A stretch of DNA of 64,000 nt from an uncultured Bacilli bacterium (GCA_944371305.1 CALVXM010000001.1:39600-103599), one strand, 5' to 3'; counted from the first letter of the stretch, positions 7,870-58,927 are shown. Notes: generated by a model from the sequence alone, not told the origin. Program-made: numbers and translations.

Positions 7870-8575
7870 TTATGAAAGAATCGCCCTTGAACTATAATAG
7901 ATAGAATTACTACCGTTGTTATAGAAAAAAGCAAATATTCCACCGCCAGGTCCATTAGCATAATGACTGCTACGAAGAACCCAAGAAGTATTAGAATTTA
8001 AAGAATATGAATGCTCTTCATACCAACCACCAATTATAGTTCCTAAAATTGTTAAAGTTTCTTTAGTCGCATCACCTAATTTACCTCTTGAATGCGTTAA
8101 ATTATTAGTTGCATCATATGTATAACTATCATAATACTTAGTTACTAAAACTTGCACCTGAAGAAAGGAAATTACCATTGGCATTAACCATACTACCCAT
8201 TCCATATTCTTAATCACGTGATAATCGCCATTAATTTTATAATTATTAGCAATATTTTTTATCTAATTTCTCGCTGGTTTAACAAGGATTTAAAACTACA
8301 CCTTAATCTTGATGATAAATGACATTATGCAAGTAATTCTATTTCCAAAAGTTTCAATATTAGCTAAAAATACTTCGTTGATAACTGGTATTTGTCCTTC
8401 AATTTGCTCATTATAATAAGTTTCTCTAATCGCTTTAGCATATCCCTCAATACTTCTTTTATTCGCACTATCGCGTGACTGTTCAATTACATTTAATTAG
8501 TATCGCAATTAAAGCAATAATAGCTAATATGATCATAACTGCTAATAATTCGACTAACGTAAACCTTCTAACCTC
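7870..8575 (-). pseudogene. Degraded prepilin-type N-terminal domain gene (pilin-like family member A): no start codon, Gly(-1) replaced by Arg, at least two frameshifts
   Basis: RC of 8500-8575 reads RRFTLVELLAVMIILAIIALIAIL then stop; the next frame continues EQSRDSANKRSIEGYAKAIRETYYNEQIEG...; ORF 7870-8217 carries the C-terminal part (..SWVLRSSHYANGPGGGIFAFFY) resembling the C-termini of the other paralogues. Confidence 0.6.
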
Positions 8576-10530
8576 TAACTATCTATCCTTTTACCATCCC
8601 TAATCACATATTCCTCTTTAGTCTTAGCATCAAATACATAAGTTGCCTGATTAAATTCAATATTATCAAAATCTTTTAAAATTTTAATATTATTAACTTT
8701 ATTAAAAACTTTATCTAATTTCTCTTCGATTTGTTCTTTCGTAAATGGTTTAGCAATATAATCGATAAAACCTTGTTCAATATATTTTTCTTTTGCTCCA
8801 GAAATAGCGTCAGCCGTTAAAGCTATTACTGGGGTATTAAAGTCTGGTATCTCTTTTAATTTTGCCATTGCTGTTACTCCACTCATATTTGGCATCATAA
8901 TATCCATTAAAATTAAATCATATTGTTGACCACTATTAATTTTATTTAAACATTCAATACCATCATAACATTCATCAATTTCAAATCCAAAACCAGCTAT
9001 AGCCAGTTTAGCTACTTTGATATTTAATTTATTATCGTCGACAATTAATACTTTTTTATGACCATAATTTTTAATAACATTGTTTTTAACAATTATATTT
9101 TCATCCAATGGTTCTTCTAGCTTACTTATTTTTTGAGGTATTTGAACAATAAATAACGATCCTTGTCCAAATTGACTTTGAACATTTATCTTTCCATTCA
9201 TCATTTCAACTAATGATTTAGTAATAGCTAGACCTAAACCGGTTCCTTCAGTAGTAGTATTTCTTTCTACATCCAATCTTTCAAATTTGTTAAATAATTT
9301 ATTTATTAATTCTGCTTTAATTCCTCTTCCTGTATCTTGAACACTAATTATTAAATTGCATAAATCATTTTTATTAATACATCTTACATTTAAATTAATA
9401 CTTCCTTGTTCAGTATATTTGATAGCATTAGACAATAAATTATTGATTATTTGTTTAATATGAATCTTATCACCAATTAATTCATATGGTACATCAGGAG
9501 CAATACTTATTTTAAATTCGATTGGTTTAGTCCCAATTCTTGTTAATGTTACCTTACATAAATTAGTTATTTCTTTTCTAAAATTATAAGGACTATTTTC
9601 TATTTCTATTTTCTCGGCCTCAATTTTATTGATATCTAATATGTTACCTACTATTTCAAGTAATGTTTGACTAGCATTCTGAATATCGATTGAGTCTTCG
9701 ATTACTTCTTTAGGAACACGATCTTTATAATTAGTTATATCAAAAGAAAGTCCGACGATTGCATTTAAAGGGGTTCTGATTTCATGCGACATACTAGATA
9801 AAAAATCTGATTTAGCTCGATTCGCTTTTTCTGCTTGATTTTTAGCTAAAGTCATTTGAGCTAACATCTTTACGTCCGGATTTTCAATTGTAAAATACAT
9901 TGTTACACATATCAAAGTTTCAACATAAGTCATAAGTAAAATTTGTGGATATTTCATCTGAATAGCCATCGCAATGCCTCCGATAGCTAAAAATATAAAT
10001 ACTGGAATATATTTTCTATTTTTTAATTTTTTTATATTAGTTAACAATAAAATTATTATAATAGCTATTAAAACACCTGATATAAAATACGTAAATAAAA
10101 CACTAACGCCAGCTGTATATCGTATGTTAAAATCATCTTTAATAATTATATCTATTGGTAAAACAAATAAAATCAAAGCCATAATAACATAGTAAATAAA
10201 AAATATAATATATCTTTTCTTATCTACTATTAATTCATTTCTTATCACACTAAATATATAATACGCGAATGTCGAAATCCACAAGATTAAATAAAGCAAA
10301 TAAGATTTATAAATTAGTTCACTAATCAAAGGATAATCTTTATAAATGTATGAAGCATAAGTACACAACATCTCGATAATCAATCCAAATAAATTTGAAA
10401 TTATTAAAACTTTAAATATTTTGGTTTCCTTACTATCTACATGTCCTTTAACAAAAAATAAAATTATAATTAAAATACTAAAAGGTATTGCACATAGAGG
10501 AAAATATATTCCACTTCCCATAATCTTCAC
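8575..10530 (-). CDS. Hybrid sensor histidine kinase (polytopic membrane sensor, HisKA, HATPase_c, C-terminal receiver domain)
   Basis: About 6 N-terminal TM helices; H-box [15 protein letters not shown]; G-boxes DTGRGI / GTGLGLAI; receiver LIVDDNKLN...ILMDIMMP. Confidence 0.85.
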
Positions 10531-10599
10531 TTCCCCGTATCATAATTATAACATTAATAAATTAATATGTAAATTAAAAAAAGAATAACAGCAGTTATT

Positions 10600-12354
10600 C
10601 TAAATTTTCAATACTTTTTGTTTAGCTTCTAGTTTTTCTAAAGCATCTTGTTCTAAGAAAGAATAATCAATTTTATCAGTTCCCGCTTTTCTAGGAAGTT
10701 CTGAAATAAACTCGATATAACTTGGAATTTCATATGATTTTAACTGTTCTTTTGTATTATTAGCTGTTAAAACTGGTTTTAAAAATTGTTCTTTAATACT
10801 ATCCATTACTTCCATCGAAGGTTCAACACCATCTTTTAAAACAATATATGCTTTATTTTTATATAACATTTCCTCATCAGGGACCTTAACAACCGCACAA
10901 TCACTGACATTATCCATATAAGAAATTAGATTTTGAATGCGATCACAATAAACTTTATTTAAGCTGGACATAATATAAAATCTTGATTCTCTACCAGTCA
11001 AAGTAAAATAACCATCTTCATCAATAGAACCTAAAGTACCTGTTTTGAAAAAGATTTTACCACCCCTTTCAAATTTAACTTCAGAAGTAGCTTTTTGATT
11101 TTTAAAATATTCTTTAAAAACATGTTTTCCTGAGACACATAACAATCCTACTTCATTATATTTTTTCTCTTCCATTGTCTCTGGATCAACTATAATAGCA
11201 TCAGTTCCAACCAATACTTTACCGGCAGTTTCTGGTCTAATTTCAATTCCCGTTGGATTGGTTCCACAACTAACTGTCTCCGCATTACCAGAACCATTAC
11301 CCATTTCAACATTTCTAGCGCCATGACTTTCTAAAAATTCTTTTCCTCTTTTAGAATGATTAGGAGTTAAAAAATCCCCACCTGATATAAAAGTTGTTAT
11401 CGATGATAAATCTTGGCTATCTTCGATATTTCTCATGATTAATTCTAATAAAGCTGGGCTTCCAAAAATAATATTCGGATTTTTCTTCAAGTAATAACTG
11501 ATTGTATCTTTAGATATATCAGGAGCTAGGATCGCTGTTTTACTACTTAATAAAGTCATTATTGTCGAAGTTACAAAACCATAAGGATAAGAAAATGGAA
11601 CACATACTAAAGTTTTATCACCATTTAAAGATTTAACATGACTAGAATTTTTTAAATAAGTACCCGCTGCTAAAACATTTTCATTAGTCAAAACAACCGA
11701 TTTGGGTTTACCAGTTGTTCCACTCGTAAACAAAATTAAACAATTATCTTTAGAATTATTATTAGGTAATCCTTTTTTTTGATATTTTGATATACTTTCC
11801 AAACTACTAAAATCAATAAAGGAATCATTATGAGTGATGTGATAATCTTTATCCATCAATAAATTATTTACTTTTGATTTATCTAGGGTAATTATATATC
11901 TTACACAGCTATTATTTTTAATTTCTTCATTTTCTAAATCGGTTTTATCAAAATTTATAAAAACTGAAGATTCAAAAGTATTAAGATAATCACATATTTC
12001 ATCTTTTGAAGCATTAGCATTTAAAAATGTCACAACTGCGCCGATTCGATTACAAGCTAAAAAAGTAGCTACTGCTTGATAATAATTAGGCATACAAACT
12101 GATACAATTTCACCTTTTTTTACGCCCAGTTCTTTCAAAGCTTTAGATATGATAACAGAATCATTAATTAATTGTTCATAAGATGCATTTAAATCAATGC
12201 AGTCAATGGCATCCTTCTTTTTATAAAAAGTATTTATTAATTGAATCGAATTATAAACACTCATATTAGGAATCACCGGATGTCGTGCAGAAAAAGAATA
12301 TCCATTATTTTGCGGTTTATCAATACTAGGATATCCAGTTAATTCTTTTTTCAT
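10600..12354 (-). CDS. AMP-dependent synthetase/ligase (adenylate-forming, ANL superfamily); start taken at MKKELTGY after a GGAGGGG Shine-Dalgarno
   Basis: AMP-binding motif LFTSGTTGKPKSV; about 585 aa; co-directional with mraY and murE. Confidence 0.8.
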   Translation of the reverse strand: MKKELTGYPSIDKPQNNGYSFSARHPVIPNMSVYNSIQLINTFYKKKDAIDCIDLNASYEQLINDSVIISKALKELGVKKGEIVSVCMPNYYQAVATFLACNRIGAVVTFLNANASKDEICDYLNTFESSVFINFDKTDLENEEIKNNSCVRYIITLDKSKVNNLLMDKDYHITHNDSFIDFSSLESISKYQKKGLPNNNSKDNCLILFTSGTTGKPKSVVLTNENVLAAGTYLKNSSHVKSLNGDKTLVCVPFSYPYGFVTSTIMTLLSSKTAILAPDISKDTISYYLKKNPNIIFGSPALLELIMRNIEDSQDLSSITTFISGGDFLTPNHSKRGKEFLESHGARNVEMGNGSGNAETVSCGTNPTGIEIRPETAGKVLVGTDAIIVDPETMEEKKYNEVGLLCVSGKHVFKEYFKNQKATSEVKFERGGKIFFKTGTLGSIDEDGYFTLTGRESRFYIMSSLNKVYCDRIQNLISYMDNVSDCAVVKVPDEEMLYKNKAYIVLKDGVEPSMEVMDSIKEQFLKPVLTANNTKEQLKSYEIPSYIEFISELPRKAGTDKIDYSFLEQDALEKLEAKQKVLKI

Positions 12355-12443
12355 TAAATACCCCTCCATCGGAATGTATGCTACCATAAATAAAAAAAAT
12401 TGTCAAATTATTTAAACAAAAAATTACTAACCAAAGTTAGTAA

Positions 12444-13433
12444 TTATATCCATACCCCCCATAAAATAGCGATAGCAGCTAAAACGATACCAAAAAACCA
12501 AAACATTTTAACGATATCTAATTCATGCCATCCTAATTTTTCAAAATGATGATGTAGTGGTGTCATCAAAAATATTCGCTTACCAGTAAATCTCACCGAC
12601 AATCTTTGTAATACACATACCAATGTTTCAACAACAAATACACCAGCTACAATAATTAAAGTTAATTCGTGGCTTGATACAATTGAAACAGCTGCTAAAG
12701 TCCCCCCTAAAGCAAGTGATCCTGTATCACCCATAAATACTTTAGCAGGATATGTATTAAAGAAACAGAAAGCTATTAAAGCTCCTACTAATATAAAACA
12801 AAATACACCAATATCTTCATTTCCTTGAATACCAAGTGAGGCCCATGCTATCATACCAAAAGCTAAGAAAGCTATTGCCGATAAACCACCAGCTAAACCA
12901 TCTAAACCATCAGTTAAATTAACTGCATTAGTAGAAGCAACCAGCATTAATAATATCAATATCCAATAAAACCACCCAAGATTAATAGTTATGCCTAAAG
13001 TATATATCTCTAAAACTGGATCTCTACCACCCTTCATAAATAAAATGAAGAAAACCACCGCAATAAGTATTTGACCGATTAGTTTTTGAAATTCACTCAA
13101 TCCAATATTATTATGTCGTTTAATAATCAAATAATCATCGATAAATCCAAGTAAGGCATAAGCTAGAAAAACAAAAATAACAGTTCCTAAATTATAAGTC
13201 ATTTCTAACTTATTCATCAACAATAATATCACAACTGATAAAATAGTCGGAATAATAAATATTAATCCACCCATAGTTGGTGTACCATCTTTTTCTTTAT
13301 GTTTTGATAAGAAAACACTCACACTTTGTTTAATATTCATCTTTTTTAGTAATGGTATTAACACAACACCAAAAATAATCGATAAAATAAATCCTATCAT
13401 GAACGCTAATACAGCCTTTGCTAAAATTAACAC
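12444..13433 (-). CDS. mraY: Phospho-N-acetylmuramoyl-pentapeptide transferase
   Basis: 10-TM protein, NAVNLTDGLDGLA signature, HHHFE motif (PLHHHFEKLGW). Confidence 0.9.
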   Translation of the reverse strand: MLILAKAVLAFMIGFILSIIFGVVLIPLLKKMNIKQSVSVFLSKHKEKDGTPTMGGLIFIIPTILSVVILLLMNKLEMTYNLGTVIFVFLAYALLGFIDDYLIIKRHNNIGLSEFQKLIGQILIAVVFFILFMKGGRDPVLEIYTLGITINLGWFYWILILLMLVASTNAVNLTDGLDGLAGGLSAIAFLAFGMIAWASLGIQGNEDIGVFCFILVGALIAFCFFNTYPAKVFMGDTGSLALGGTLAAVSIVSSHELTLIIVAGVFVVETLVCVLQRLSVRFTGKRIFLMTPLHHHFEKLGWHELDIVKMFWFFGIVLAAIAILWGVWI

Positions 13434-13451
13434 ATCATCATCTCCAATTGT

Positions 13452-14774: not shown

Positions 14775-14831
14775 CCATTATATTTTATTCAAATGGTTAA
14801 AAAATGTGGTAAAATATAGTTGGTGAAGATA

Positions 14832-17995: not shown

Positions 17996-18005
17996 ATTTT
18001 TTATT
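17975..18005. terminator. Bidirectional intrinsic terminator between murE-like (+) and Doc/Fic-like (-) genes
   Basis: A-run, hairpin ctactttcaaagtag, T-run; overlaps the TAG stop of the murE-like gene. Confidence 0.65.
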
Positions 18006-21783: not shown

Positions 21784-22020
21784 ATCATTTCACCAAGTTT
21801 ATTATATAACAAATAAAAAAAGATTACAATAAAATAGTTTGCTATAACTAATTTAAATATAAAAAAAGATAAATTTTAACTTTATCTTTTTAAGTAAATA
21901 AAATTAATTCTCACCAAAAATATCATCAATAACATTTTCTGGAATATGATAAAATTTTTGATCGAAAATAATATATGGGTGACTTCCCCCAATACTATCT
22001 GTAGGGTCTACCGGTTCTAT

Positions 22021-22410
22021 TCATTCTCCATTAACTTTAAAATTTCCATCACTTTGTAATTCAAATTCATAGTTATTACTCTTTATTTTTAATTTGGTTA
22101 CTTTACCATTTTGATATTTGACTTCTAAGACTTCCGCATTCCCTAAACTCACCATTTTGCTAACATCATCAATGGTTACTCCATCATCATCATTACATAT
22201 ATCTGTACTTTCATCTAATTGATTCTTCATTGCTGATGTCGCACAATAATTATTAATGCCACTTAATATCATACTTGCTTCTGATTTTCCCGCACTCTTT
22301 CTAGCATCTTCAATCACATTTAATATGATTGGGGTTGCTATTAGGGCTATTATAGCTAATATTATTATGACTGCTAATAATTCAATCAATGTAAATCCGC
22401 ATTTCTTCAT
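22021..22410 (-). CDS. Prepilin-type N-terminal cleavage/methylation domain protein (pilin-like family member B, the only intact copy); start at ATG 22410 after a GGAGG Shine-Dalgarno (ORF track extends to a GTG at 22425)
   Basis: MKKCGFTLIELLAVIIILAIIALIATPIIL: class III signal peptide with G(-1) F(+1) E(+5); about 129 aa. Confidence 0.8.
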   Translation of the reverse strand: MKKCGFTLIELLAVIIILAIIALIATPIILNVIEDARKSAGKSEASMILSGINNYCATSAMKNQLDESTDICNDDDGVTIDDVSKMVSLGNAEVLEVKYQNGKVTKLKIKSNNYEFELQSDGNFKVNGE

Positions 22411-22518: not shown

Positions 22519-22590
22519 TTATTTAGTTGATATCTTTTTCATTCTACGTGTGCTATTCGCTAATAAAGTTTTTACTTTATTTTCTAACAT
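22519..22590 (-). CDS. Candidate leader peptide ORF (23 codons, MLENKVKTLLANSTRRMKKISTK) upstream of pilin-like gene B
   Basis: Conserved with a second copy at 59093-59161 (MIENKVTAKLANSTHGGGQKPL), at about 80% nucleotide identity; preceded by a conserved promoter. Confidence 0.35.
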   Translation of the reverse strand: MLENKVKTLLANSTRRMKKISTK

Positions 22591-29437: not shown

Positions 29438-30507
29438 TTAACCTATTCTAAAAGCCGGAGCAACACCATTAATATCAATAGCATGAGGATCATTCCAATT
29501 GCCATCAAGCATAATACGGTAAAAAGCAGTATTAAGGTGAGCAAAAGCAGAACGTGTCCACCAATAACTTTCAAGTTCTTGATGTCTTTTTATTGCTCCT
29601 TTATAATTACTAGTGCTTACATTATTCATTTCATAATAATCTAATTGTCTTGTATTGTTATCGCTCGTATCATTACTTATAATATTACTTGTTCCATTTT
29701 TACCATAGATTTCTTTCGTAGCTAACAAATATAATTTGTCGTTAGTTATAAAATTTTCTAAATCTCCACTACCATGACTAGATATTACTTTTGTATCTAT
29801 TATTACATTTTTTAAATCTTCCGGTAACGAATTATATATATCATTTTTTAAAAATATATATAGTTCACTTGCAGGATATCCCCCTATATTAGTTAAAGTT
29901 GAATTTATTTTACGTAATGTGATTATATCAACAAATTCAATCACAAATCCACAAGCAGTTTGCGAAAATTCATTATTACTACATTCAGATGGCGTTGTAA
30001 TATTGGCTATTCTTACCGTATATGTACCAGCATATTCTCCAGTTAAAGTTACTTCTTTTGTATCTCCTACTTTATATTTACTCATATCCCCATTTTTTAC
30101 GGCATTAGCTATTGTTTTCCATGAATCATCTTTAAATGATACTGGAGTATGATTTTTACATTCTTCATCATAGCGAAATACATATTGATTATTAATTTCA
30201 TCCCATTTATATAATACACAACCTGTCATTTCTTTATTAGTCACTGGATTTATCGTCTCAATTTCTAAAAAGCCACTACTTTTTAATTCATTTAAAAATA
30301 TCGCATTTTCTTCGGTTGAATATCCTAAACTATTTTGAGTACTATAATTATGAGCTGCTTCTAAAATACTATCAATACTTCTTTCTAATGCTGCTTGCTT
30401 ACTATTTTCGATTGATTTATCGACTATTGGAAAAGTTATTAAAGCTATTATTCCAAGTATTATTATGACTGCTAATAATTCAACTAATGTAAATCCTTTT
30501 TTAACAT
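29438..30507 (-). pseudogene. Prepilin-type N-terminal domain protein (pilin-like family member C, about 355 aa if corrected) interrupted by a 1-nt frameshift in an A6 run at codon 4
   Basis: ATG 30507 gives MLKKDLH-stop; shifting one base after the A6 run (plus-strand T6 at 30497-30502) gives ..KKGFTLVELLAVIIILGIIALITFPIVDKSIENSK... continuous with ORF 29438-30244; perfect promoter TTGCTT-N17-TATAAT upstream. Confidence 0.6.
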
Positions 30508-30604: not shown

Positions 30605-32062
30605 TTATAAGAACATCATCGCTAACGTTAAAATAAGAATATTGACAACTGCAATCGTAACGACAATCTTTAAAGCAAATTTTACCCAAGTTGCATATTC
30701 TACTTTAGCTACTGCAAGTCCACCCATAATAGCGCCACAAGTTGGTGTAATTAAGTTAACTAAACCGTTAGCAGCAACTATAGTCATAACAGTTCCTTCA
30801 ACACTATATCCTAATTGATAAGCAACTGGTCCTACGATAGGTGCTGATAAAGTAGCCAAACCAGAACTAGATGGAACTAAAATAGATAATAGAACATGAA
30901 TAACATAGTTAAATGGTGCGAATATGATAACTGGAACATTTTTAAGCATCTCAGCAGCATTATAAATTATGTAATTATCTAAATATGTGCTTTGCATTAA
31001 AACTGAAGCTCCACGAGCAATAGCGATAATTAAGATTACTCCAACCATATCGTCAGCGCCATCGATAAATGTATCAACAAATTTTTTCTCTCCAGTTCTA
31101 TTAACAAAACCAATAATAACTGACATAATTAAAAACCACAAAGCTGCTTCATAGAAATACCACTGTCCTAAAGGCATTCCTGTTAACCAACCAGTAAATT
31201 TAGGAAATATATCAATACCAAATTCTTCCCAAGGAATAAATCCAACAATCATCACAACAAATGTCAAAGCAAATAAACATAAAGTAATTTTTTGTTTTTT
31301 GGATAATTTAACATTATCTAATTCAGTATTAACATGACTTCCGTATTCTTCTTCCGCATTTTTTCTTTCTCTTAACGATAAGAAAGTTGAACCTTTTTTC
31401 TTAATAACTCTTTTAGCATAAGCCATTACAAATAAAATAGAAATCAATAAAGTTGTCAGCCATAAAGCTACACCTATACCAATTATAAGTCCTTGATTAA
31501 CAGCAATTCCTTCAGGCAAGGCGCTAACTGCTGCTCCTACCGCAAATGGATTAATAGTTGATCCTAAAACACCTGAACCTGCTCCTAATAAAACAACTGC
31601 TGATGCTACCAAGGTATCCATACCAGCCATTACCATCGTTGCAGATAATAAAGCATAAAAACCAACAGTTTCCTCAAGCATACCATAAGTAGTACCACCA
31701 ACTGAGAAAATAAACATTAAAATTGGTATTAATATTAACTCTTTACCTTTTAGTTTTTTAACCAAAACTTTAATACCAGTTTCCAAAGCTTCAGTTCTTG
31801 CAACAATAGCTAAAAACCCGCCTAGAATAAGAACGAAAATACAAACATCAATCGCATTTTCAAATCCTAAAATAGGAGACAAAAGTACATCTGATAATGT
31901 CGCTCCTACAACACCACTACCATTGACAATTTCTTCAACGCCTTCAGCGTTAGTAACAAATTCTGCTTTAGGTAGAAAATGTGAAACAATTCCTAAAGCA
32001 AATATTAATATGAAAATTATCGAAAAAGCGGTTAGAAAACCTTTTCTTTTTTTCTTTGCCAT
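30605..32062 (-). CDS. YfcC-family membrane carrier (putative arginine/ornithine antiporter, ArcD-like by context)
   Basis: 485 aa, about 11-12 TM helices, basic N-terminus MAKKKRKGFLTAFSIIF typical of YfcC family; last gene of the arc operon. Confidence 0.65.
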   Translation of the reverse strand: MAKKKRKGFLTAFSIIFILIFALGIVSHFLPKAEFVTNAEGVEEIVNGSGVVGATLSDVLLSPILGFENAIDVCIFVLILGGFLAIVARTEALETGIKVLVKKLKGKELILIPILMFIFSVGGTTYGMLEETVGFYALLSATMVMAGMDTLVASAVVLLGAGSGVLGSTINPFAVGAAVSALPEGIAVNQGLIIGIGVALWLTTLLISILFVMAYAKRVIKKKGSTFLSLRERKNAEEEYGSHVNTELDNVKLSKKQKITLCLFALTFVVMIVGFIPWEEFGIDIFPKFTGWLTGMPLGQWYFYEAALWFLIMSVIIGFVNRTGEKKFVDTFIDGADDMVGVILIIAIARGASVLMQSTYLDNYIIYNAAEMLKNVPVIIFAPFNYVIHVLLSILVPSSSGLATLSAPIVGPVAYQLGYSVEGTVMTIVAANGLVNLITPTCGAIMGGLAVAKVEYATWVKFALKIVVTIAVVNILILTLAMMFL

Positions 32063-44365: not shown

Positions 44366-44728
44366 TTAAAAATATTTCTCAAAATTTATATAAATATATG
44401 TTAATTTTTCTTCTAATTCTTCATATAATTGATCTTTTGGCATAAAAAAGCCATTTTTAAACATTTTTAGAACCAAAACAGCAACACCAATTACAACAAC
44501 AATTCCTAAAGATGAGCTAAAAGCGTATTCAATTTTATAGAAATCTAGTTTTTTTGTATCTTCATTATATCCAACAATAATAAAAGATGCCACTGCAATA
44601 ATTAAAGTCGTTAAATTCCCGATAAAACCAGTTTTAATTCGATTTGGAACTTTTTTTCTATAATGTGATATGCATAAATTTATTTCATCCTTTTTAGTAA
44701 TATTATTGCTTTTCAAAATATCTACCAA
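44366..44728 (-). CDS. Hypothetical small membrane protein (two TM helices)
   Basis: 120 aa ORF with hydrophobic segments; no motif. Confidence 0.35.
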   Translation of the reverse strand: MVDILKSNNITKKDEINLCISHYRKKVPNRIKTGFIGNLTTLIIAVASFIIVGYNEDTKKLDFYKIEYAFSSSLGIVVVIGVAVLVLKMFKNGFFMPKDQLYEELEEKLTYIYINFEKYF

Positions 44729-44929
44729 ATTTAAAACATCTTGATTCTCAATAATATCAATATAATTTTTAAATTTTTTTGTTCTATCATTATTAGTACT
44801 TTTTAGATATTTTTTAAAATCAACAATTATCCAAATTCTAATAGTAAATATAAATATAACAAAATAAGCTATAAATAAGAAATATTTGTTTATTCCATTA
44901 AAATAAAGAAGTAAAGTTTGGATTGATTA

Positions 44930-45346
44930 CAATAAATTAGACAGAAAAAATGTGGATATGCAATTACTCCACCAAAAACAAGTAATTCAAATAGTATTAT
45001 AGATTTAGATGATAACTTAATAACAATTTTAAAAAAACATTATGAAAAAGAAAGTAAAATATATAGTTTTAGTAAAAATATGTTTATTTTTGGTAATGTC
45101 AGATTTTTAGCTCAAACTACTTGTAATAATAATTTAAAAAAATATGTAAAAAAAGCTAATGTCAAATACATAAGTCCACACGGTTTTAGACATTCCCACG
45201 CAAGTTTGCTTATTAATTTAGGTTGTGATAGTTATGATGTTGCACAACGTCTAGGTGATACTCCAAAAATAGTAGAAAATACATATTATCATATGTTTAC
45301 TAAAAAGAAAAAACATACTTTGGAATTGTTAAACAATTTAAAATAA
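44930..45346 (+). pseudogene. Remnant (C-terminal catalytic part only) of a tyrosine recombinase/phage-type integrase
   Basis: In-frame ..LITILKKHYEKESKIYSFS..ISPHGFRHSHASLLINLGCD..DTPKIVENTYYHM (R-H-x-x-R ... Y catalytic residues) with no N-terminal domain; upstream frame broken by stops. Confidence 0.6.
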
Positions 45347-45372
45347 GTGGTAATTAGGAGGTAATTATTTCA

Positions 45373-45402
45373 CGACATATTAAAACCCTTATAAAATAAG
45401 GG
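45373..45402 (+). terminator. Intrinsic terminator after the integrase remnant
   Basis: Hairpin cccttataaaataaggg then T5. Confidence 0.55.
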
Positions 45403-45598
45403 CTTATTTTTATATGGAGCGTATAAAGAAGAAGTCGAATAACTTTTCTTACGCCAATAATCAGGTAAGTAATAACTACTAACTAGTAAAATTATATCAC
45501 AACATTTACATTTTGAAACAAAAAATGTCTAATTTTACATTGAAATTATGAAAAATTCAAGAAATATGCTATAATTAATATGATTGGAGATGATTTAT

Positions 45599-46033
45599 AT
45601 GAAAGAAAATATCGATTTAGGTGCTGCAATTGAAAAAATTCAAAATTATGCTATCAACTCTTTTCAACCTAGTTATGTTCGTGCAGATAGTAAACCAGCC
45701 GATGTTGCAAAATATTCTGACTTTATAGAACTACCACATGATATAATTGACCAAGTTCCAGATGTAATCTTAAAAGTATATGGCGAAGAAAAAGGTGCTT
45801 TGGAATGGAAGAAAATTGCAACAGCTGTCTTCAAATTAACAGTAGTATCTGATGTACGTGTTGAAGTAACTAGATTAATGCGAGCTCTTTTAGCAGTATG
45901 GGACGAAGAACGTAAATTTATGTATAAAGGAAAAGATGGAAAAGACTATACTTCTTTTGAACAAGTTAGGTCAGTAAATGAATTTTATGCACAACAAGAA
46001 AATCCTACAATAGAACAAGGAAGAAGTAGATAA
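45599..46033 (+). CDS. Hypothetical protein (cargo ORF 1 of the mobile element); start at ATG after a GGAG Shine-Dalgarno
   Basis: Intact ORF with good RBS; no recognisable motif. Confidence 0.5.
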   Translation: MKENIDLGAAIEKIQNYAINSFQPSYVRADSKPADVAKYSDFIELPHDIIDQVPDVILKVYGEEKGALEWKKIATAVFKLTVVSDVRVEVTRLMRALLAVWDEERKFMYKGKDGKDYTSFEQVRSVNEFYAQQENPTIEQGRSR

Positions 46034-46052
46034 AAACTATAGGAGATTATAT

Positions 46053-46625
46053 ATGTTTGTAAAAAATAAAGTTATTGATAAAGACGAAATTCAAAGAGTA
46101 ATTGAAAGTAGAGATTTAATAACATATGATTCATTAAAAAAAGAATGGGATGATGTGGAAGAAACTAGTAAAGAATTAGGAATAGAACCTACAAATAAAG
46201 AATTTAATTTTTATGAAATGTATGAAGTTGCCTTTAGTTGCAATTTGTATGGTTTAACTTTAGATGAATTAGAATATATAGTCGAGAATAATTTATTTGG
46301 TTTTGATGAAAATAATATACTTGATTATAGATGTAAAATGAGTATTGAAAGAAGAATTAAATATTATAAACAAATTCTTTCTGATTTAACTAATTGCATT
46401 CAAAAAGGTAATGTAGGAAGTTATTTTAGTAAATATGGAGATTTATTTCACATGAGTGGTGGTGGATTACAAATAGCATCATTTTTGGGTTTAAATAGAA
46501 ATGGTGTTGAACTTACTTCAGAAGGTGAGAAATTAAAAGTTTGTATAGAGAACATTAGACAATTACATTACAACGAAATTAAACAGAGGTCTGCGACAGC
46601 TAAACATGGATCAGTTCATAGATAA
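46053..46625 (+). CDS. Hypothetical protein (cargo ORF 2 of the mobile element)
   Basis: Intact 190 aa ORF, AGGAG RBS 8 nt upstream; no recognisable motif. Confidence 0.5.
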   Translation: MFVKNKVIDKDEIQRVIESRDLITYDSLKKEWDDVEETSKELGIEPTNKEFNFYEMYEVAFSCNLYGLTLDELEYIVENNLFGFDENNILDYRCKMSIERRIKYYKQILSDLTNCIQKGNVGSYFSKYGDLFHMSGGGLQIASFLGLNRNGVELTSEGEKLKVCIENIRQLHYNEIKQRSATAKHGSVHR

Positions 46626-46747
46626 TATTTACAATGTAAATACTACATACAAAAGTCGTGGCACGTTATGAAATTACAAAGTAATTTTGTAAGTGGCGAT
46701 AGACTTTTATAAATATATTTTCATTACGAAGTTTTGAAAATATATAA

Positions 46748-46925
46748 TTGCAATTTATTGCAATTCAAAAAACATAATTATTGCTTGAACGATTAGTTCT
46801 TGCTTAATTATGTTTTAGGGTTTCAAAAGGGAGTATTCCCTTTGCACACCTATTGGCTCTGCCAATAGAGAAGTGTGTTTTATCTATTGGAAATAGATAT
46901 TACCGACAAGCGAATGCTTGTCTTT
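46748..46925. other. Candidate origin of transfer (oriT/RSA) for the Pre/MobV relaxase: inverted repeats ttgcaatttattgcaa (46748-46763), gggagtattccc (46829-46840), and cacacctattggc-tct-gccaatagagaagtgtg (46845-46877) ending in GTGTG/TTTTA
   Basis: Position immediately 3' of the mob gene on the non-coding side; the MobM-type nick sequence of pMV158 is GTGTG/TTA. Confidence 0.4.
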
Positions 46926-50034
<3,109 letters not shown>

Positions 50035-50058
50035 TTATCATCTCCTTTTCTTCAAAAA

Positions 50059-50104
50059 AAGAGGTGTCAAAAGTATTAAGCAACTAATACTACTGACACC
50101 TCTT
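50059..50104 (-). terminator. Strong stem-loop (11-bp stem, nested palindrome in loop) plus T7 immediately upstream of the serine recombinase RBS: putative read-through insulator / attenuator
   Basis: aagaggtgtca...tgacacctctt with T-run then GAAAAGGAGA then ATG on the minus strand. Confidence 0.5.
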
Positions 50105-50229
50105 AAAATCTAATTTAGAATAATATTTACTTATAAATACGAATCTCATACTATTTTTCCCCCTAAATAGACATAAGTCTTCTTGGCTGATTATTCTATC
50201 ACTTTTTTAAGAAATGTCAAATCATTGGC

Positions 50230-50505
50230 TTAAAAATGGCTTTTAATGTGATTTTCAAAGTCTTTAAACTTTATTTTTTCATTATAGCCATTAACAAATA
50301 TGTCATCACATTCATCAAACATTAAATATTCAATATTATTAACTTTAATAATATGTGGTTTTACATAAGCAATATTTGTTCCCTTAATACTTTTAATATT
50401 TCCATTTGTAATAGTAGGTTTAGCACAAGCAAACTTACAAATCATTTCAACCTTTCTTTTTAGTTCAATACTTATCTCTAATTCTTTAGTTTCTATTGTT
50501 AACAT
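50230..50505 (-). CDS. Hypothetical 91-aa protein between recombinase and tRNA-Gly
   Basis: ORF only; no motif. Confidence 0.35.
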   Translation of the reverse strand: MLTIETKELEISIELKRKVEMICKFACAKPTITNGNIKSIKGTNIAYVKPHIIKVNNIEYLMFDECDDIFVNGYNEKIKFKDFENHIKSHF

Positions 50506-50531
50506 ATAATCACTCTCACTTTCTTAAATAA

Positions 50532-50558
50532 CAAAAAAACTAACTATTTCTAGTTAGC
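50532..50558 (-). terminator. Intrinsic terminator downstream of tRNA-Gly
   Basis: Minus-strand hairpin ctaactagaaatagttag followed by T7. Confidence 0.7.
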
Positions 50559-50602
50559 ATTTATTACTCTCGAAATATAAAAGTTCGAGTTTCCTATCAT
50601 AT

Positions 50603-50677
50603 TGGAGCAAGTGAGCGGAATCGAACCGCCGTCCCAGCCTTGGCAAGGCCGTATACTAACCGCTGTACTACACCTGC
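50603..50677 (-). tRNA. tRNA-Gly (anticodon GCC), CCA encoded
   Basis: RC folds as cloverleaf: acceptor gcaggtg/cacttgc, anticodon stem cggcc/ggctg, loop ttGCCaa, T-loop ttcgatt, 3' tCCA; 75 nt. Confidence 0.9.
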
Positions 50678-50726
50678 AAAACTAAACATAATTATACAAT
50701 AATTATATTCAATTGTAAATAGTTTT

Positions 50727-51653: not shown

Positions 51654-51692
51654 TAGTTATCACCTATTTTTATTATATCACAAAAAAAAGAT

Positions 51693-53336: not shown

Positions 53337-53388
53337 ATAACCACTCCTTTCATAATTATATCATAAAAAAAAGTATATTTAATACTTT

Positions 53389-53598
53389 TTACATATATTT
53401 TGTCATTGATTTCATCATTTGATTAACTTGTTTTTGACTTGGAGTTCTACCCATCTGGGTCATCATCGCCTTAATCATTTGTTCGTTGATTGGTGGGTTC
53501 TTCTTAATTTGTTTTTGAATTAAATTTCTCGCTACAAAAAATCCAATTACGCCACCAACTACTAAACCAATTAATAAATATATAATATTCCACAACAT
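53389..53598 (-). CDS. UPF0154 / YneF-family small membrane protein
   Basis: 69 aa, N-terminal TM, C-terminal ..MMTQMGR.PSQKQVNQMMK.M typical of YneF. Confidence 0.6.
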   Translation of the reverse strand: MLWNIIYLLIGLVVGGVIGFFVARNLIQKQIKKNPPINEQMIKAMMTQMGRTPSQKQVNQMMKSMTKYM

Positions 53599-53658
53599 TA
53601 TTCATCAACTCCTTTATTAATTTTACTATTTTTTACCATATTTTTCAACACTTATTTC

Positions 53659-54306
53659 CTATTTTTTAATTAATACTTTAAAATTATTATCAATTTTATT
53701 TAAATATAATTTAATCTTTTTATAGCTTCTTGTTAAAATACGACTAACGTAAGACGCTGAAATATTTAATATTTCACTAATTTGTGCTTGGGAATAAGAC
53801 GGACTATTTATTCCAAAATATAACATAACAACTCTTTTTTCTAAATCACTTAAAACTATTAATGACTCAATTACTTCTTTTTTTAATTCTTTATCAATAT
53901 AATTATCTTCAATACTAATATCATCGAGCAATAAATCCATAAATTCAAAATCATCATCAATATTATTATTTAAACTACTAACATTTTCTAATTTCTTATT
54001 TTTTCTTAAAAACATCAATATTTCATTTAAAATACAACGCGATGCATAAGTGGCAAACTTAACTTTATAAGAAACATTATAATTATCGACAGCTTTAATT
54101 AATCCGATACAACCAACTTCAAATAAATCATCGTATTCTATATAATACAAAGATTCATAAAAAGACTTATAATGAATTTTAACAAGACTCATCACTAATC
54201 TTAAGTTGGATTCAATTATTATATTGCGACTTTCAATATCACCATTTTGATATTTTAAAAATAATATATTTAATTTTTCTTCTTCAATCGGTTCTGGTAA
54301 AAACAT
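53659..54306 (-). CDS. Sigma-70 family RNA polymerase sigma factor (regions 2 and 4 only, ECF/sporulation-like size)
   Basis: Region 2 ..LIKAVDNYN...FATYASRCI; region 4 HTH ..SQAQISEILNISASYVSRIL; 215 aa. Confidence 0.7.
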   Translation of the reverse strand: MFLPEPIEEEKLNILFLKYQNGDIESRNIIIESNLRLVMSLVKIHYKSFYESLYYIEYDDLFEVGCIGLIKAVDNYNVSYKVKFATYASRCILNEILMFLRKNKKLENVSSLNNNIDDDFEFMDLLLDDISIEDNYIDKELKKEVIESLIVLSDLEKRVVMLYFGINSPSYSQAQISEILNISASYVSRILTRSYKKIKLYLNKIDNNFKVLIKK

Positions 54307-54316
54307 ATTAATCTCC

Positions 54317-54733
54317 TCATGCCATAATTGTCGATAACGTAACTTTCCCTGTTAACCAAAAATAATCATTATTAATAAAGTCACAAACAAAAATATTTTT
54401 ACTATACGTTTTAAAATCTTCTAATAAGTTATTATAGTTTATACCTCTTATGATAATTCTTGTATGTTTTAATTCAACAAAGGTCTTATCAACATAAAAT
54501 GTTCTTTCATTATCAAGTTTATATTTTTTATTTAAATAATATTTGAGATTAAAAATATTTATTCGTTCACATAGTTGACTATATAACGAAATGCCATAGT
54601 TAAAATCTTCTTTCATATAATATAATTTCTTCAATATATCGAATAAAAATAATGGATTTTTTTGATAATAATCATAATATTCTTTTTTAATAACAAAAAG
54701 ATTATATTCTTTCATCGGTATCACCCAAATCAA
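54317..54733 (-). CDS. Hypothetical protein (138 aa), upstream of and co-directional with the sigma factor
   Basis: ORF only. Confidence 0.35.
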   Translation of the reverse strand: MIWVIPMKEYNLFVIKKEYYDYYQKNPLFLFDILKKLYYMKEDFNYGISLYSQLCERINIFNLKYYLNKKYKLDNERTFYVDKTFVELKHTRIIIRGINYNNLLEDFKTYSKNIFVCDFINNDYFWLTGKVTLSTIMA

Positions 54734-54763
54734 TTATATAACCTTTAAAATGCGAAATTTGTC

Positions 54764-56689
54764 TTATTTTAGCGAATCGATAATTTTTTTGATAATTTGC
54801 TCGTAACTAAATTCCATTTCATCTAAAACTTCATCTTTTGTGCCACTATAACCAAATCTATCTAAAGTTATCAAATATTTTTCATTATAAACAAAACTTT
54901 CCCAACCATATTTACTACCTGCTTCAACCACAAATGTTCGATATCCTTTTGGTAAAATACTCTCTTGATATTCTTTTGATTGTTTTAAAAATAATTCTCT
55001 TGATGGCATACTAACTACACGAATATCAACCTTATAATTTTCATATAAATAATCAGCAATCTTAATACTTAATTCAACCTCACTACCAGTAGCTATAATA
55101 ATTGCATGTAATTGTTGTTCCTTTCTTACAATATAACCACCATTAGCCACTAATTTATGATTAGTAAGATGATTTACTTCAACCTCATTTCTTGATAAAA
55201 CTAAACAACTTGGTTTTTGATTATTAATGATATATTCCCAACAACCGATAATTTCTTTAATATCGGCTGGCCTAAACACAGTCATATTAGGAATACTTCT
55301 TAAAGAAATTAATTGTTCGATTGGTTGATGAGTTGGACCATCTTGACCAATATTAATTGAATCGTGGGTAAAAATATAAGTAACAGGTAAATTCATCAAA
55401 GCACTAAGACGAATAGCCGGTTTTAAATAATCAGAAAAAACTAAGAATGTCGATCCAAAACAATTAAATCCACTTAAAGCAAGACCATTTAAAACAGATC
55501 CCATCGCATGTTCCCTAACTCCAAAATTAATATTATCACCAGTAAAATTATCAAGATTATTACTTAAAACTGCCTTAGTTGAAGATCCTAAATCCGCACT
55601 ACCACCGATAAAATTAGGAATCCTCTTAGCAATTTCCTTCATAACTTTACCATTACTAACTCTTAAAGATTCAACTAAATTGCTATCAAATTCTAAATCT
55701 GATAAATCTAATTTAATATTTTCCTTATGATAATTCAAATCATTAACCAATTTATGAAATAATTCATATTTTTTATTACTTCTTTCACTTATTTGTTTAG
55801 TAAAATTCTCTTTTGCCTCCAAATTAACATAAAATTCGGTTGGATCAATTTTAAGTTTTAATTTTAATTTATTTATATCATCTTTATCCAAAGGTGAACC
55901 ATGAACTTTATTAGTGTTTTCATTAATTGATCCTTCGCCAATAATTGTTTTAACTTCAATCAAAGTCGGTTTATCACTTTTTTTAGCTTCTTCAATTGCT
56001 TTATCAATGCTAGAAATACTATTATTTTTAACTAATATCGTATTCCAATTTAATGCTTTAAAGCGATCAATAACATTTTCATCAAAGACGTTTTCAGTTC
56101 TACCATCTAAACTAACATTATTAGAATCATATAAAACAATTAAATTATTTAGTTTTAAACTTCCTGCTAACGATGTAGCCTCATAACTAACACCTTCCAT
56201 TAAGTCACCATCACCACACAAAACATAAACGTGATAATCAAATAAACTTTGCTCTTTTCCTAATTTGCTTTTTTTAGGTAATTCATACTTTTTATTCAAT
56301 ATTTTTCCTGCTAAAGCCATACCTACAGCAGACGCAATTCCTTGACCTAAAGGACCGGTCGACATATCGACTCCTTCAGTGATACCAAATTCAGGATGAC
56401 CAGGTGTTTTAGAATGAATATGCCTAAATTGTTTTAAATCATCAATAGTTAAATTAAATCCCGCCATATATAAAGTTGCATACAATAAAGCTGAACCATG
56501 ACCTGCTGACAATACAAAACGATCCCTATTTTCCCATAATGGATCATTAGGATTAACATTCATATGTTTAGCATAAACCGTGTAGATAATGTTTGCTGCA
56601 CCTAAAACAATTCCTGGATGACCACTATTAGCCATATCAATCATATCGATACCTAAAGATTTAATGTTACTAACAATTTCTCTATCCAT
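54764..56689 (-). CDS. tkt: Transketolase
   Basis: ThDP-binding N-terminus ..ANSGHPG..G; GDGDLMEG; 641 aa; GAGGTG Shine-Dalgarno before ATG. Confidence 0.9.
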   Translation of the reverse strand: MDREIVSNIKSLGIDMIDMANSGHPGIVLGAANIIYTVYAKHMNVNPNDPLWENRDRFVLSAGHGSALLYATLYMAGFNLTIDDLKQFRHIHSKTPGHPEFGITEGVDMSTGPLGQGIASAVGMALAGKILNKKYELPKKSKLGKEQSLFDYHVYVLCGDGDLMEGVSYEATSLAGSLKLNNLIVLYDSNNVSLDGRTENVFDENVIDRFKALNWNTILVKNNSISSIDKAIEEAKKSDKPTLIEVKTIIGEGSINENTNKVHGSPLDKDDINKLKLKLKIDPTEFYVNLEAKENFTKQISERSNKKYELFHKLVNDLNYHKENIKLDLSDLEFDSNLVESLRVSNGKVMKEIAKRIPNFIGGSADLGSSTKAVLSNNLDNFTGDNINFGVREHAMGSVLNGLALSGFNCFGSTFLVFSDYLKPAIRLSALMNLPVTYIFTHDSINIGQDGPTHQPIEQLISLRSIPNMTVFRPADIKEIIGCWEYIINNQKPSCLVLSRNEVEVNHLTNHKLVANGGYIVRKEQQLHAIIIATGSEVELSIKIADYLYENYKVDIRVVSMPSRELFLKQSKEYQESILPKGYRTFVVEAGSKYGWESFVYNEKYLITLDRFGYSGTKDEVLDEMEFSYEQIIKKIIDSLK

Positions 56690-56739
56690 ATCATCACCTC
56701 AATTATATAACATATTATAACATATTTTAGAATAAAAAA

Positions 56740-56915
56740 AAAGTCCAAGAATGCGGGCCCTTAACGATAAAACCTAGTCTCTACCAGGTGGGCATCACAT
56801 CATCAATTTTAGGATTCTCAAAATTAATTGAGCCTTCAACACCATCGATGAATTAGATTCCCAATATTCGTTAATCAGTCGGTTTTTCTAAATGAGCTTA
56901 TCGCTATCCTTAGAC
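56740..56915 (-). ncRNA. Candidate small/structured RNA or tkt 5' leader (about 175 nt, GC-rich island, extended -10 TGgTATAAT at 56922-56930, 3' T9)
   Basis: Local GC far above flanks (gggcccgc, cccacctgg); no ORF; family not identified; no clean terminator hairpin found. Confidence 0.2.
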
Positions 56916-56965
56916 AATTATATTATACCATAAATTATTAAAAATATCATAATTTTAAATATTTT

Positions 56966-57745
56966 TCATATTTTCCCATTTTTATAACCTAAAATTGTGT
57001 TTAAATTAACATTTTTAGTACTAGTCATAATATTAACATCAGCTTTACTATATATCTTATTTAATTCTTTTACTAAATTTTTAATAACTACTCTTTGACC
57101 GGAATTTTTTTTAGTTACAGAACAAGCACAATCTAAAAATTCTAATTCATTATTTTTAGCCCATTTTATTATGTCATCCTCCTTAACATAATAAAGTGGT
57201 CTTATTAATGTCATACCTTCAAAATTAGTACTATTTACCTTTGGAACCATACTACTAAAATTACCGTTAAAAATCATATTAAGTAAAACCGTTTCAATAA
57301 CATCGTTAAAATGATGACCCAAAGCGATTTTATTACAACCGATACTTTTTGCATAACTATATAAATAACCTCTCCGCATCTTTGCACACATATAACAAGG
57401 ATTGTCAGTCGTATCAGCTATATTAAATATCGGTGTTTCAAATATCTTAGCATCTATATTCAAATTTTCTAAATTTTCCTTTATTTTATCGATATTTTCT
57501 TTACTATAACCAGGATTCATAACAATAAATTCTAAATCAAAATTAAATTTGCCATGCCTTTTTATTTCTTGCATACACTTAGCTAATAAAAATGAATCTT
57601 TTCCTCCACTAATACATATAGCAATTTTATCATTTTCTTCAATTAAATTAAATTCTTTTATTGCTTTAACAAAAGGAACAAATATTTTCTTTCGATACTT
57701 TTTTATAATACTTCTTTCAATTTCTTTTAATTCCATAAACATCAC
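56966..57745 (-). CDS. PP-loop ATPase, tRNA 2-thiocytidine synthetase TtcA-like
   Basis: PP-loop ICISGGKDS, CxxC pair CYMCAKMRRG, 259 aa. Confidence 0.7.
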   Translation of the reverse strand: MMFMELKEIERSIIKKYRKKIFVPFVKAIKEFNLIEENDKIAICISGGKDSFLLAKCMQEIKRHGKFNFDLEFIVMNPGYSKENIDKIKENLENLNIDAKIFETPIFNIADTTDNPCYMCAKMRRGYLYSYAKSIGCNKIALGHHFNDVIETVLLNMIFNGNFSSMVPKVNSTNFEGMTLIRPLYYVKEDDIIKWAKNNELEFLDCACSVTKKNSGQRVVIKNLVKELNKIYSKADVNIMTSTKNVNLNTILGYKNGKI

Positions 57746-57943
57746 ATATGTATTATATCAAAAACTATCTACATACGTAATAACTTTTATTAAATTATAA
57801 TAAAAAGAATTCAAAGTTTGAATTTTTTACTAAACTGTTTTTATTCTAGTTGTAAATTACTAATATTTTTAGGTTTAACCTAGGGAATAAAACTTGTTTC
57901 CTAATGCTTCTCTTTATCTAACCATAGTCACATAAATCTCAGT

Positions 57944-58927
57944 TTAAAAGGAATATGCACGGACGTCGGTGGTATTCGTCGGGTTGTTGTAGAAGTTGCC
58001 ATAGCCATAGACGCGACGAACGTAAGACGAACTATATCTATTTCCTAACCAAAAATAATCTTTTATATCTAAATATGAATTAGTTCCACCTGCTCTTACA
58101 TATTGATTTTCATCTAATAATCCTACTTTTTTAGTTACTGTTATTTCATCGACATCTGTATATATTCCTACATTAAATGTATTGTCTTTTATATTATTTT
58201 GAATGCTACCATCTAAACTATTATAAAAATATTCATTTAACCAATTATTGATATAACTTGCTTCATATTCTTCTTCTGTTTCCCATACATCATAAGCTGG
58301 ACTAATTGCTGTCAATGGTTGTTGAGATACCAATAATAATGTATTCTCTTCTGTATCAATTTCTACTATTCGCCAATGATGACCCCCATACCATAAATAA
58401 TTATTAGTAACTTCGTCATTTGTACCTTTATAATAATATATATTACTATTTGTTTCATCTTGCACTAATCCTTTGGTTCCAACTTGTTCTAATAATGTTG
58501 ATATTAAATTTGTCTCTGGGTCCTCTGGTAGCTTGACACCACATTCTTCTTCATCAATGGAAAAACTTCCATCACCACATAATGTAAATTTATGAGTATT
58601 ACTATTGACTACTAAATTTGTTACTTTACCATTACTGTATTCTACTTCTAATACTTCGGCATTTCCTAAACTTACCATCTTACTTACTTCTTCAGTTGTT
58701 ACTCCATCGGCACATATATCTTCTGTTCCATTTAATTGATTTTTTACTTTACTAGTAGCACAGTAATTATTAATGCCACTTAATATCATACTTGCTTCTG
58801 ATTTGCCCGCACTCTTTCTTGCATCATCAATGACATTTAAGATAATTGGTGTGGCTATCAAAGCTATTATAGCTAATATTATAATAACTGCTAATAATTC
58901 TATTAACGTAAATCATTTTTTCTTCAT
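57944..58927 (-). pseudogene. Prepilin-type N-terminal domain protein (pilin-like family member D, about 327 aa; N-terminal 120 aa about 85% identical to member B plus a roughly 170 aa C-terminal extension) carrying an in-frame TGA at codon 5, exactly the Gly(-1) position
   Basis: ATG 58927 after a GAGGAG Shine-Dalgarno: ATG AAG AAA AAA TGA TTT ACG TTA ATA GAA TTA TTA = MKKK-stop-FTLIELLAVIIILAIIALIATPIIL...; paralogue B has TGC GGA at the same place. Confidence 0.6.

Follow-up and report, generated by a model that had tools for sequence, protein, structure and literature searches.

Probable strain-level decay of modular pilin-lectin genes, members of a family linked to diversity-generating retroelements, in an uncultured gut Bacilli bacterium

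Four prepilin-type loci of a proposed modular family

A 64,000-nucleotide (nt) stretch of the genome of an uncultured Bacilli bacterium (GCA_944371305.1, CALVXM010000001.1:39600-103599; hereafter the window) carries four dispersed genes, A to D, that encode the class III signal of type IV prepilins. The window has a GC content of 26% and uses the standard bacterial code. We compared the four genes with their counterparts in other assemblies and in 79 loci from species-representative genomes of related uncultured gut Bacilli, and propose that they are members of a large modular type IV pilin-like family of uncultured low-GC gut Bacilli. In this family a class III signal and a small pilin module are joined to a C-type-lectin-fold module (DUF6273 in C and D; the tail of A is unrelated). 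All four copies in this strain appear to have lost adhesin function, probably through ordinary and mostly irreversible mutations. The four loci, in amino acids (aa) and open reading frames (ORFs) where applicable, are:

7870..8575, minus strand: locus A, an A-type modular pilin pseudogene (three-frame translation; N_methyl match below threshold)
22021..22410, minus strand: locus B, class III signal and pilin module only, a 129-aa ORF (identical allele in 20 contigs)
29438..30507, minus strand: locus C, a pilin and DUF6273 gene broken by a 25-nt deletion (seven intact 364-aa orthologues)
57944..58927, minus strand: locus D, a truncated D-type modular pilin ending inside variable region 1 (VR1; alignment to the related loci L001 and L002)

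The 29-nt TTTACNTTRRTNGAATTATTAGCAGTYAT motif, which encodes FTL[IV]ELLAV, lies at 8535-8563, 22367-22395, 30465-30493 and 58884-58912, always on the minus strand, and was also recovered as repeat family D4. Because four matches were found in the window and none across 100 shuffles, the four prepilin N-termini reported by a first-pass annotation of this DNA are real and non-random. The Pfam family N_methyl (PF07963) matched B (1.5e-7), C (1.2e-5) and D (1.4e-7), each passing the cutoff, while A scored 16.8 bits, under the cutoff of 21.2. Only B has a translatable leader with Gly at position -1 and Glu at +5: A is without a start, C is out of frame past codon 2, and D has TGA at -1. As had been noted, pilus machinery is absent, with no T2SSE, T2SSF or Peptidase_A24 gene found in the window.

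The predicted structure of an intact C orthologue (AlphaFold2; mean predicted local distance difference test score 88) has a 52-residue N-terminal helix, a small beta-sheet and a C-terminal domain, with the long alpha-1 helix packed against the sheet as in pilins. The top structural matches of the C-terminal domain were the C-terminal domain of Legionella Lcl, the B. ovatus tip pilin 4EPS, the retroelement-diversified protein TvpA, proteins resembling formylglycine-generating enzyme (FGE), and C-type lectins. The domain thus has a C-type-lectin fold, with the variable residues at its C-terminal end. Homologues of D number more than 6000, typically of ~565 aa with N_methyl and DUF6273, and modules are shuffled among family members: P0247 combines a B/D-type pilin module with an A-type tail, and the L007 allele of B has a B-type pilin module fused to a C-type lectin. 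In L014 and L019, T2SSF and Peptidase_A24 genes lie directly upstream of D-type genes, and the family's proteins may well be displayed on a type IV filament. The T2SSF proteins (L014 1499-3451, L019 1566-3509) are ~650 aa long, with an N-terminus 250-300 residues longer than usual and no Pfam match in the extension. For the T2SSE ATPase, a Walker-A scan of 1.4 Mb of related loci gave ABC transporters only.

Lesions of C, D, B and A and their alleles in other strains

The lesion in C had been described as a 1-nt frameshift in an A6 run; comparison with seven assemblies of the same species showed a larger loss. These assemblies read ATGT[TAAAAAAAAATCATACTGATATTAC]TAAAAAAGGA, where the 25 nt in inner brackets, between two TAAAAAA direct repeats, are missing from the window, whose C gene begins TTAAAAAAGG. 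The deletion junction (30497-30503) eliminates codons 3-10 and shifts the frame. Intact orthologues are 364 aa long with the N-terminus MLKKNHTDITKKGFTLVELL and show 3 further substitutions relative to the window; the window-type product, P0404 (268 aa), occurs on 15 contigs. The lesion is a slipped deletion rather than a homopolymer error, and it does not form a reversible tract. The junction also creates TT A_AAA_AAG G, an in-frame -1 slippery heptamer, at which a -1 frameshift might conceivably restore MLKKGFTL (MLKKGFTLVELL). Two 376-aa proteins, P0408 and P0410 (...WVNQNVKKGFTL), were considered as second-site revertants of the deletion (TAG to CAG) and rejected: the DNA of L101 still reads TAG and is the same as the window over the aligned C start region, and the Q in these proteins is a gene-caller artefact.

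Locus D runs from ATG (58925-58927) through TGA at the Gly(-1) codon (58913-58915) into a pilin module, a first DUF6273 module and part of VR1. Its start reads ATG AAG AAA AAA TGA TTT ACG, which bears out the earlier placement of the stop exactly at Gly(-1). The syntenic contig L001, from a different metagenome, shares both this TGA and the 3' end of the window gene, while the syntenic L002 has GGA at Gly(-1) and an intact 567-aa gene with two variable regions (VRs). When the window was aligned to L002, the final 80 nt of its D gene corresponded to VR1, the first of two hypervariable patches:

57956..58035, minus strand: frozen VR1 of D, a 55% GC island (alignment to L002)

The codons of this segment are adenine-mutagenised (TAC GTT CGT CGC GTC TAT GGC TAT GGC AAC ...). 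Past ...GTCCGTGCA, the window jumps to sequence that is 903 nt farther along in L002, with the fusion at ~57955; the fusion partner is normally found 3' of the template repeat (TR). Because the window continues after VR1 with the post-TR sequence of L002, its D gene would have arisen by recombination between VR1 and TR, with loss of the second lectin module, VR2 and the TR. The 170 aa beyond B that were first annotated are not a simple extension, as full-length orthologues have 567 aa and ~903 nt have been lost between VR1 and TR.

Truncated D forms comprise at least 8 distinct sequences, all with one identical VR1 peptide, and P0400 is a further allele, a VR1xVR2 recombinant. GGA and TGA were each found on full-length and truncated backgrounds, giving all four combinations (L002, L100, L099 and the window). 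Otherwise identical D alleles differ in two patches only, 58726-58844 and 58055-58091. The truncated alleles are mosaic in two patches of the pilin module, which indicates what is probably frequent recombination or gene conversion, and recombination can account for the four GGA/TGA haplotypes, recurrent G-to-T mutation also being possible. One variant of patch 58726-58844 resembles the paralogue B, which suggests gene conversion between loci.

Locus B was first annotated as the one intact copy, which is correct for the ORF and not for the gene, since other strains carry a 374-388-aa pilin and DUF6273 allele at the same locus (in L007, a 379-aa protein with N_methyl and DUF6273). The TGA that ends the window ORF (22021-22023) falls opposite a Gly codon in full-length alleles (NGE-G-TDPVDPT in P0424, NGE-stop-IEPVDPT in the window), and divergence between the window and these alleles begins precisely at the TGA. 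The 129-aa B is thus the pilin module alone of a longer gene. Beyond its stop lies a short remnant:

21904..22020, minus strand: relic past the B stop, 38 more in-frame codons (IEPVDPTDSIGG...; translation and allele comparison)

The first residues of this relic match the linker of full-length alleles and the remainder is unrelated to the lectin module; P0422 is the same relic, read through by a gene caller under code 4. Identity between B and D was 76% over 129 aa, below the ~85% over 120 aa first given. At both the B stop and the D nonsense codon (58913-58915) relatives have Gly, in the context AA-GGA; the G-to-T change was demonstrated in D, and protein alignment points to the same change in B.

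Locus A retains an FTLVELLAV N-terminus, a pilin-module fragment, a middle part with an internal deletion and a 90-aa C-terminal tail domain. Three-frame translation confirmed the reported loss of the start codon, A abutting the stop of a hybrid histidine kinase gene, as well as several frameshifts (at least 3 frame breaks). The reported Arg at -1 is only one of two readings: one frame gives Arg-Arg-Phe, the alternative Gly (GGT) followed by a 1-nt loss in TTT. Every frame break was common to the other assemblies examined (6/6), 4 substitutions apart, and the relic was found in more than 40 contigs. The lesions of A appear to be fixed within the species. The W/Y-rich tail that A, C and D were said to share is common to C and D, both DUF6273, and does not extend to A, whose tail is a different domain; as a DUF6273 homologue it was rejected (HHalign probability ~1%). 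Searches of the window with the A and C tails (blastn-short) returned self matches only. Among representative proteins, 213 have the A-tail domain at the C-terminus, and many of these are prepilin-type (P0263 for one); one full-length relative gave a weak, sub-threshold match to FGE-sulfatase.

D-type genes and diversity-generating retroelements

The hypervariable patches of D-type proteins resemble the targets of diversity-generating retroelements (DGRs). Among 29 full-length D-type proteins, mean pairwise identity was 43% in the two VR windows and 82% elsewhere, and proteins 96-99% identical outside the VRs had 9-30 residue differences inside them. A clean case is L028, in which a bAvd-like gene, an RVT_1 reverse transcriptase (RT) gene (IGNMTSQ, YMDD), a 109-nt TR and a pilin-type target follow one another. 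The target carries its VR at the C-terminus and is 68% identical to the D pilin module, and in the TR/VR core all ~20 mismatches fall at TR adenines (21/27 over the whole alignment, the other 6 at its ends). In L109 the order is target, TR, a conserved element, a MutS_I-like small ORF, Avd and RT, and the RTs of both cassettes have IGN[LM]TSQ and YMDD motifs. The small ORF beside Avd and RT in L109 (8853-9263) matches MutS domain I (Pfam E 2.7e-6), an unusual accessory gene for a DGR; its counterpart in L028 (842-1192) is similar by eye only and has no Pfam match.

In L002 an adenine-rich TR (GTT CGT AAC GTC AAT AAC AAT GGC AAC CTC AGC AAC AAC AAT) lies 100 nt downstream of the D gene. It differs from VR1 and VR2 at 12-13 TR adenines, and the other differences cluster at the 3' end and are T/C changes resembling those of an initiation of mutagenic homing (IMH) site. 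If the two correspond, such differences are as expected for IMH (in the VR) and IMH* (in the TR), the short ends that direct DGR homing. The window itself holds the frozen VR1 alone, so that a VR/TR pair with adenine-specific differences exists in L002 and, cleanly, in L028, and not in the window. With the GC-rich D tail as query, a blastn-short search for a TR copy in the window gave self matches only, and a six-frame motif scan of the window found no RT; RT and Avd are absent from the window and likewise from L001 and L002. The other GC-rich islands that a scan of the window picked out beside VR1 were the collagen-like gene, a tRNA, part of transketolase and a stretch of a DcuC-type gene near 31500. 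These comparisons show that D-type genes are DGR targets in the clade and that the window copy is dead.

A non-coding element that normally follows the TR has been kept in the window without it:

57835..57953, minus strand: conserved non-coding post-TR element (TTCCTTTTAAACTGAGATTTAT...; comparison with relatives)

The element is also present in L002 (10963-11085), L003 (11859-11980), L028 (2671-2790), L108 and L109, and in the window it is followed by a terminator-like hairpin at ~57790-57815. Its ~100 nt are conserved across species, even beside a decayed TR (L003). It is a candidate for a segment of the DGR RNA that the RT requires. Folding of the element was not significant (z -0.65) and the alignment fold gave one modest hairpin with little covariation; given these values we do not claim a structured RNA here. 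An exact search of a metagenome collection with the L002 TR found no match, and the search with the post-TR element yielded L108 and L109.

A strain-variable poly-G tract upstream of D

A conserved mini-ORF, M[IL]E[ND]KV..LANST[HR], precedes B- and D-type genes (~190 nt upstream of D), and in D it contains a homopolymer:

59093..59161, minus strand: small ORF upstream of D (MIENKVTAKLANSTHGGGQKPL, then stop), which holds the poly-G (44-aa gene call in L002)
59108..59116, minus strand: poly-G tract, G9 (the sole G or C run of at least 7 in the window)
22519..22590, minus strand: small ORF upstream of B (MLENKVKTLLANSTR...), a paralogue of the D upstream ORF without poly-G (repeat family D8 and sequence comparison)

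The D-locus tract reads G9 in the window and in L099, G6 in L001 and G5 in L002, and the frame of the mini-ORF changes with its length; L007 has G10 in the paralogous tract of its B locus. Within 1.41 Mb of related loci, every run of G8 or longer was on the gene strand (25/25), and 19/25 were followed by GFTLxELL within 350 nt, a strong association, although the count is biased as these loci were picked for carrying such genes. A simple-sequence tract that varies between strains thus lies near the gene, with a possible effect on expression, and it is this poly-G, not any of the lesions, that makes a plausible reversible switch. A sigma-70 promoter scan around D gave 11 sites against 12.4 expected, which is uninformative in AT-rich DNA.

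Probable decay of surface adhesins and the alternatives

We interpret these loci as relics of DGR-linked modular pilin-lectin genes and their lesions as a strain-level, mostly irreversible loss of variable surface adhesins, and put the probability of this explanation as a whole, family membership included, at roughly 0.78. In the proposed course of events, A would have decayed through multiple frameshifts and deletions that are apparently fixed in the species, B would have had its lectin module lost or replaced after a stop at the former Gly codon, and C would have suffered the slipped 25-nt deletion between direct repeats. In D, homologous recombination between VR1 and TR would have removed module 2, VR2 and the TR, with a G-to-T nonsense mutation at Gly(-1) in addition; the two variable regions of D-type members would previously have been written by a DGR whose TR lay just downstream of the gene. 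Of the two suggestions made by the first-pass annotation, the one of recent decay in a surface-structure system is upheld here: the lesions are real alleles in many independent assemblies, and other strains of the species carry B (374-388 aa), C (364 aa) and D (567 aa) in intact form. The annotation holds in the main, although for three of the four lesions its particulars had to be revised. What that annotation had missed is the link of a modular pilin-lectin family to DGRs, and the strain-variable poly-G upstream of D. The loss may have been driven by relaxed or fluctuating selection, exerted by host immunity or phage.

Several observations weigh against this interpretation. The 129-aa B has an ordinary pilin size, is the commonest allele and may still work as a plain pilin instead of being decayed. 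The presence of both TGA and GGA on D backgrounds, full-length and truncated, that are otherwise identical is only partly explained. The window contains no RT, Avd, TR, prepilin peptidase, platform protein or ATPase, and therefore shows neither pilus assembly nor DGR activity. Finally, because the L002 TR has several non-adenine differences and no RT lies within 14 kb of it, the DGR at the D locus may already be a relic species-wide.

A broader reading, possible though at low odds, is that three stacked mechanisms vary the tips of type IV filaments: DGR hypermutation of two lectin-fold loops per protein, with the TR beside the target and the RT elsewhere; module shuffling and gene conversion, with the broken copies as donors; and poly-G slippage, with the mini-ORF as switch. 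GGA/TGA would then be a fourth, site-specific off-switch.

Reversible phase variation at the first codons of each gene is improbable. It would fit the occurrence of GGA and TGA on otherwise identical D alleles, both full-length (L002/L100) and truncated (L099/window), as well as the B stop, likewise at a former Gly codon, and the slippery heptamer of post-deletion C, where frameshifting is conjectural. However, none of the lesions lies in a hypermutable simple-sequence repeat, C having lost sequence between 7-nt repeats and D combining a point nonsense mutation with a 0.9-kb deletion, and neither the C deletion, the D and B truncations nor the decay of A can revert. The frequent recombination seen in the D mosaic patches is alone sufficient for the four haplotypes; only the GGA/TGA site could toggle, and recombination explains its four combinations equally well. 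The first-pass suggestion of recurrent on/off switching, possibly reversible at the A6 run, falls with the 25-nt deletion in C, the lost modules of D and B and the heavy degradation of A.

We also doubt strongly that the broken copies are silent, pilS-like donor cassettes that feed an expressed pilin locus by gene conversion. The discrete patches in which D alleles differ, one variant being B-like, and the shuffling of modules seen in P0247 and the L007 B allele are what such a system would produce. Yet B, C and D each still have a ribosome-binding site and start region (the start of A is gone), other strains have intact versions at the same loci, and no expression locus or recombination signal was identified.

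There is very little room for the view that TGA is a sense codon (Gly in code 25, Trp in code 4), so that D and B are read through. TGA does take the place of an expected Gly in D and, apparently, in B; public gene callers used code 4 (P0403, MKKKW...; P0422), and metagenome-assembled genomes of the clade are often labelled Tenericutes or Mycoplasmatota. Against this, 11/56 long ORFs in the window end at TGA with normal lengths (e.g. Fmt, 318 aa), long conserved genes are free of in-frame TGA, and the L002 orthologue has GGA at the D site. P0403 and P0422 (W for TGA), like P0408 and P0410 (Q for TAG), are alternative-code translations of AT-rich metagenome contigs, that is, gene-caller artefacts of codes 4 and 15 over DNA with ordinary stops, and we rejected sense TGA under code 4 or code 25 on the TGA-terminated ORFs and these stops.

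The idea that the lesions are sequencing or assembly errors in intact genes, which the first-pass annotation proposed to settle by looking for A7 in C and GGA in D, draws on the A run adjoining the C lesion and on a source that is probably a metagenome-assembled genome, but is scarcely tenable and its proposed test moot, because independent gut-metagenome assemblies of this species show every one of the lesions again (in C a 25-nt deletion, seen on 15 contigs; the B form is on 20, the A relic on more than 40, and D alleles with TGA or truncation are in many contigs from different samples).

The wider interest lies in pilin-borne lectin-fold adhesins, which form a large and unannotated family in abundant uncultured gut Bacilli; some of its members are DGR-hypermutated, and the live copies differ by strain. 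The window matters more as a lead to the intact system of sister strains. If displayed, the proteins are candidates for interactions with host glycans, immunoglobulin A (IgA) or phage. The allele series (intact, truncated, VR1xTR, VR1xVR2, GGA/TGA) forms a natural experiment on loss and retention. Public protein sets also hold code-4 and code-15 mistranslations of these genes that mimic repaired alleles.

Other features of the window

An Rfam scan of the window at gathering threshold found 6S RNA and one tRNA only, with no match at the post-TR element or the upstream ORF. The 6S RNA (RF00013, 67 bits; 56738-56919, minus strand) lies between the transketolase gene and a TtcA/TilS-like gene downstream of D. 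A 279-aa collagen-like Gly-X-Thr repeat protein (4725-5564, plus strand; Pfam Collagen 1.6e-24) bears a resemblance to BclA-like surface filaments, and its gene is a 50-65% GC island in the 26% GC genome. A likely integrative mobilisable element at ~44366-50677 contains a Mob_Pre relaxase (46926-48182), a large serine recombinase (48163-50031) and several ORFs without a family match, and adjoins tRNA-Gly(GCC) at 50603-50677.

Comparison with known systems

Homopolymeric tracts act as contingency loci in other bacteria, as in the poly-G tracts of Campylobacter and of Neisseria pilC. The tract upstream of D is similar in being a G9 run in a 26% GC genome, directly upstream of a surface-protein gene and of strain-variable length. 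It differs in lying inside a small upstream ORF, rather than in the pilin frame or a mapped promoter, and switching is only predicted.

Modular pilins have been described in Streptococcus sanguinis, in which PilB carries a von Willebrand factor A module and PilC a lectin module (PMC8179133, PMC9934059). The genes described here share with PilB and PilC a class III signal, a small pilin module and a grafted C-terminal binding module, with a predicted alpha-1 helix and head, and prepilin peptidase and platform genes adjoin D-type genes in relatives. In contrast to PilB and PilC, the grafted module consists of one or two copies of a DUF6273 C-type-lectin fold. Unlike the S. sanguinis pil operon, the genes are single and dispersed among housekeeping genes, some are DGR targets, and they are known from genes alone. 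In a further comparison, the N-terminal domain of the Thomasclavelia ramosa IgA protease (PDB 9QA6; PMC12402451) is part of a sortase-anchored M64 peptidase, not a pilin, and has only 16% identity.

Among DGR variable proteins the closest comparisons are Bordetella phage Mtd, Treponema TvpA (2Y3C), the Bacteroides tip pilin 4EPS and phage DUF6273 tentaclins, where DUF6273 was earlier likened to a C-type lectin in DGR targets (PMC10743442). As in these proteins, the VR is at the C-terminal end of a C-type-lectin-fold domain and TR/VR differences are adenine-specific, and, as in known DGRs, the related cassettes encode Avd together with an RT that carries the I/LGxxxSQ motif. The searchable literature hardly mentions type IV pilin carriers as DGR targets; a 'G-type pilin' is listed only as rare (PMC11661182). 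Four points set the present system apart: the TR is beside the target while the RT is absent from the locus in this species, the window copy lacking even the TR; a MutS_I-like small ORF accompanies Avd and RT in L109; two VRs per protein are fed by one TR; and the carrier of the variable domain is a type IV pilin module.

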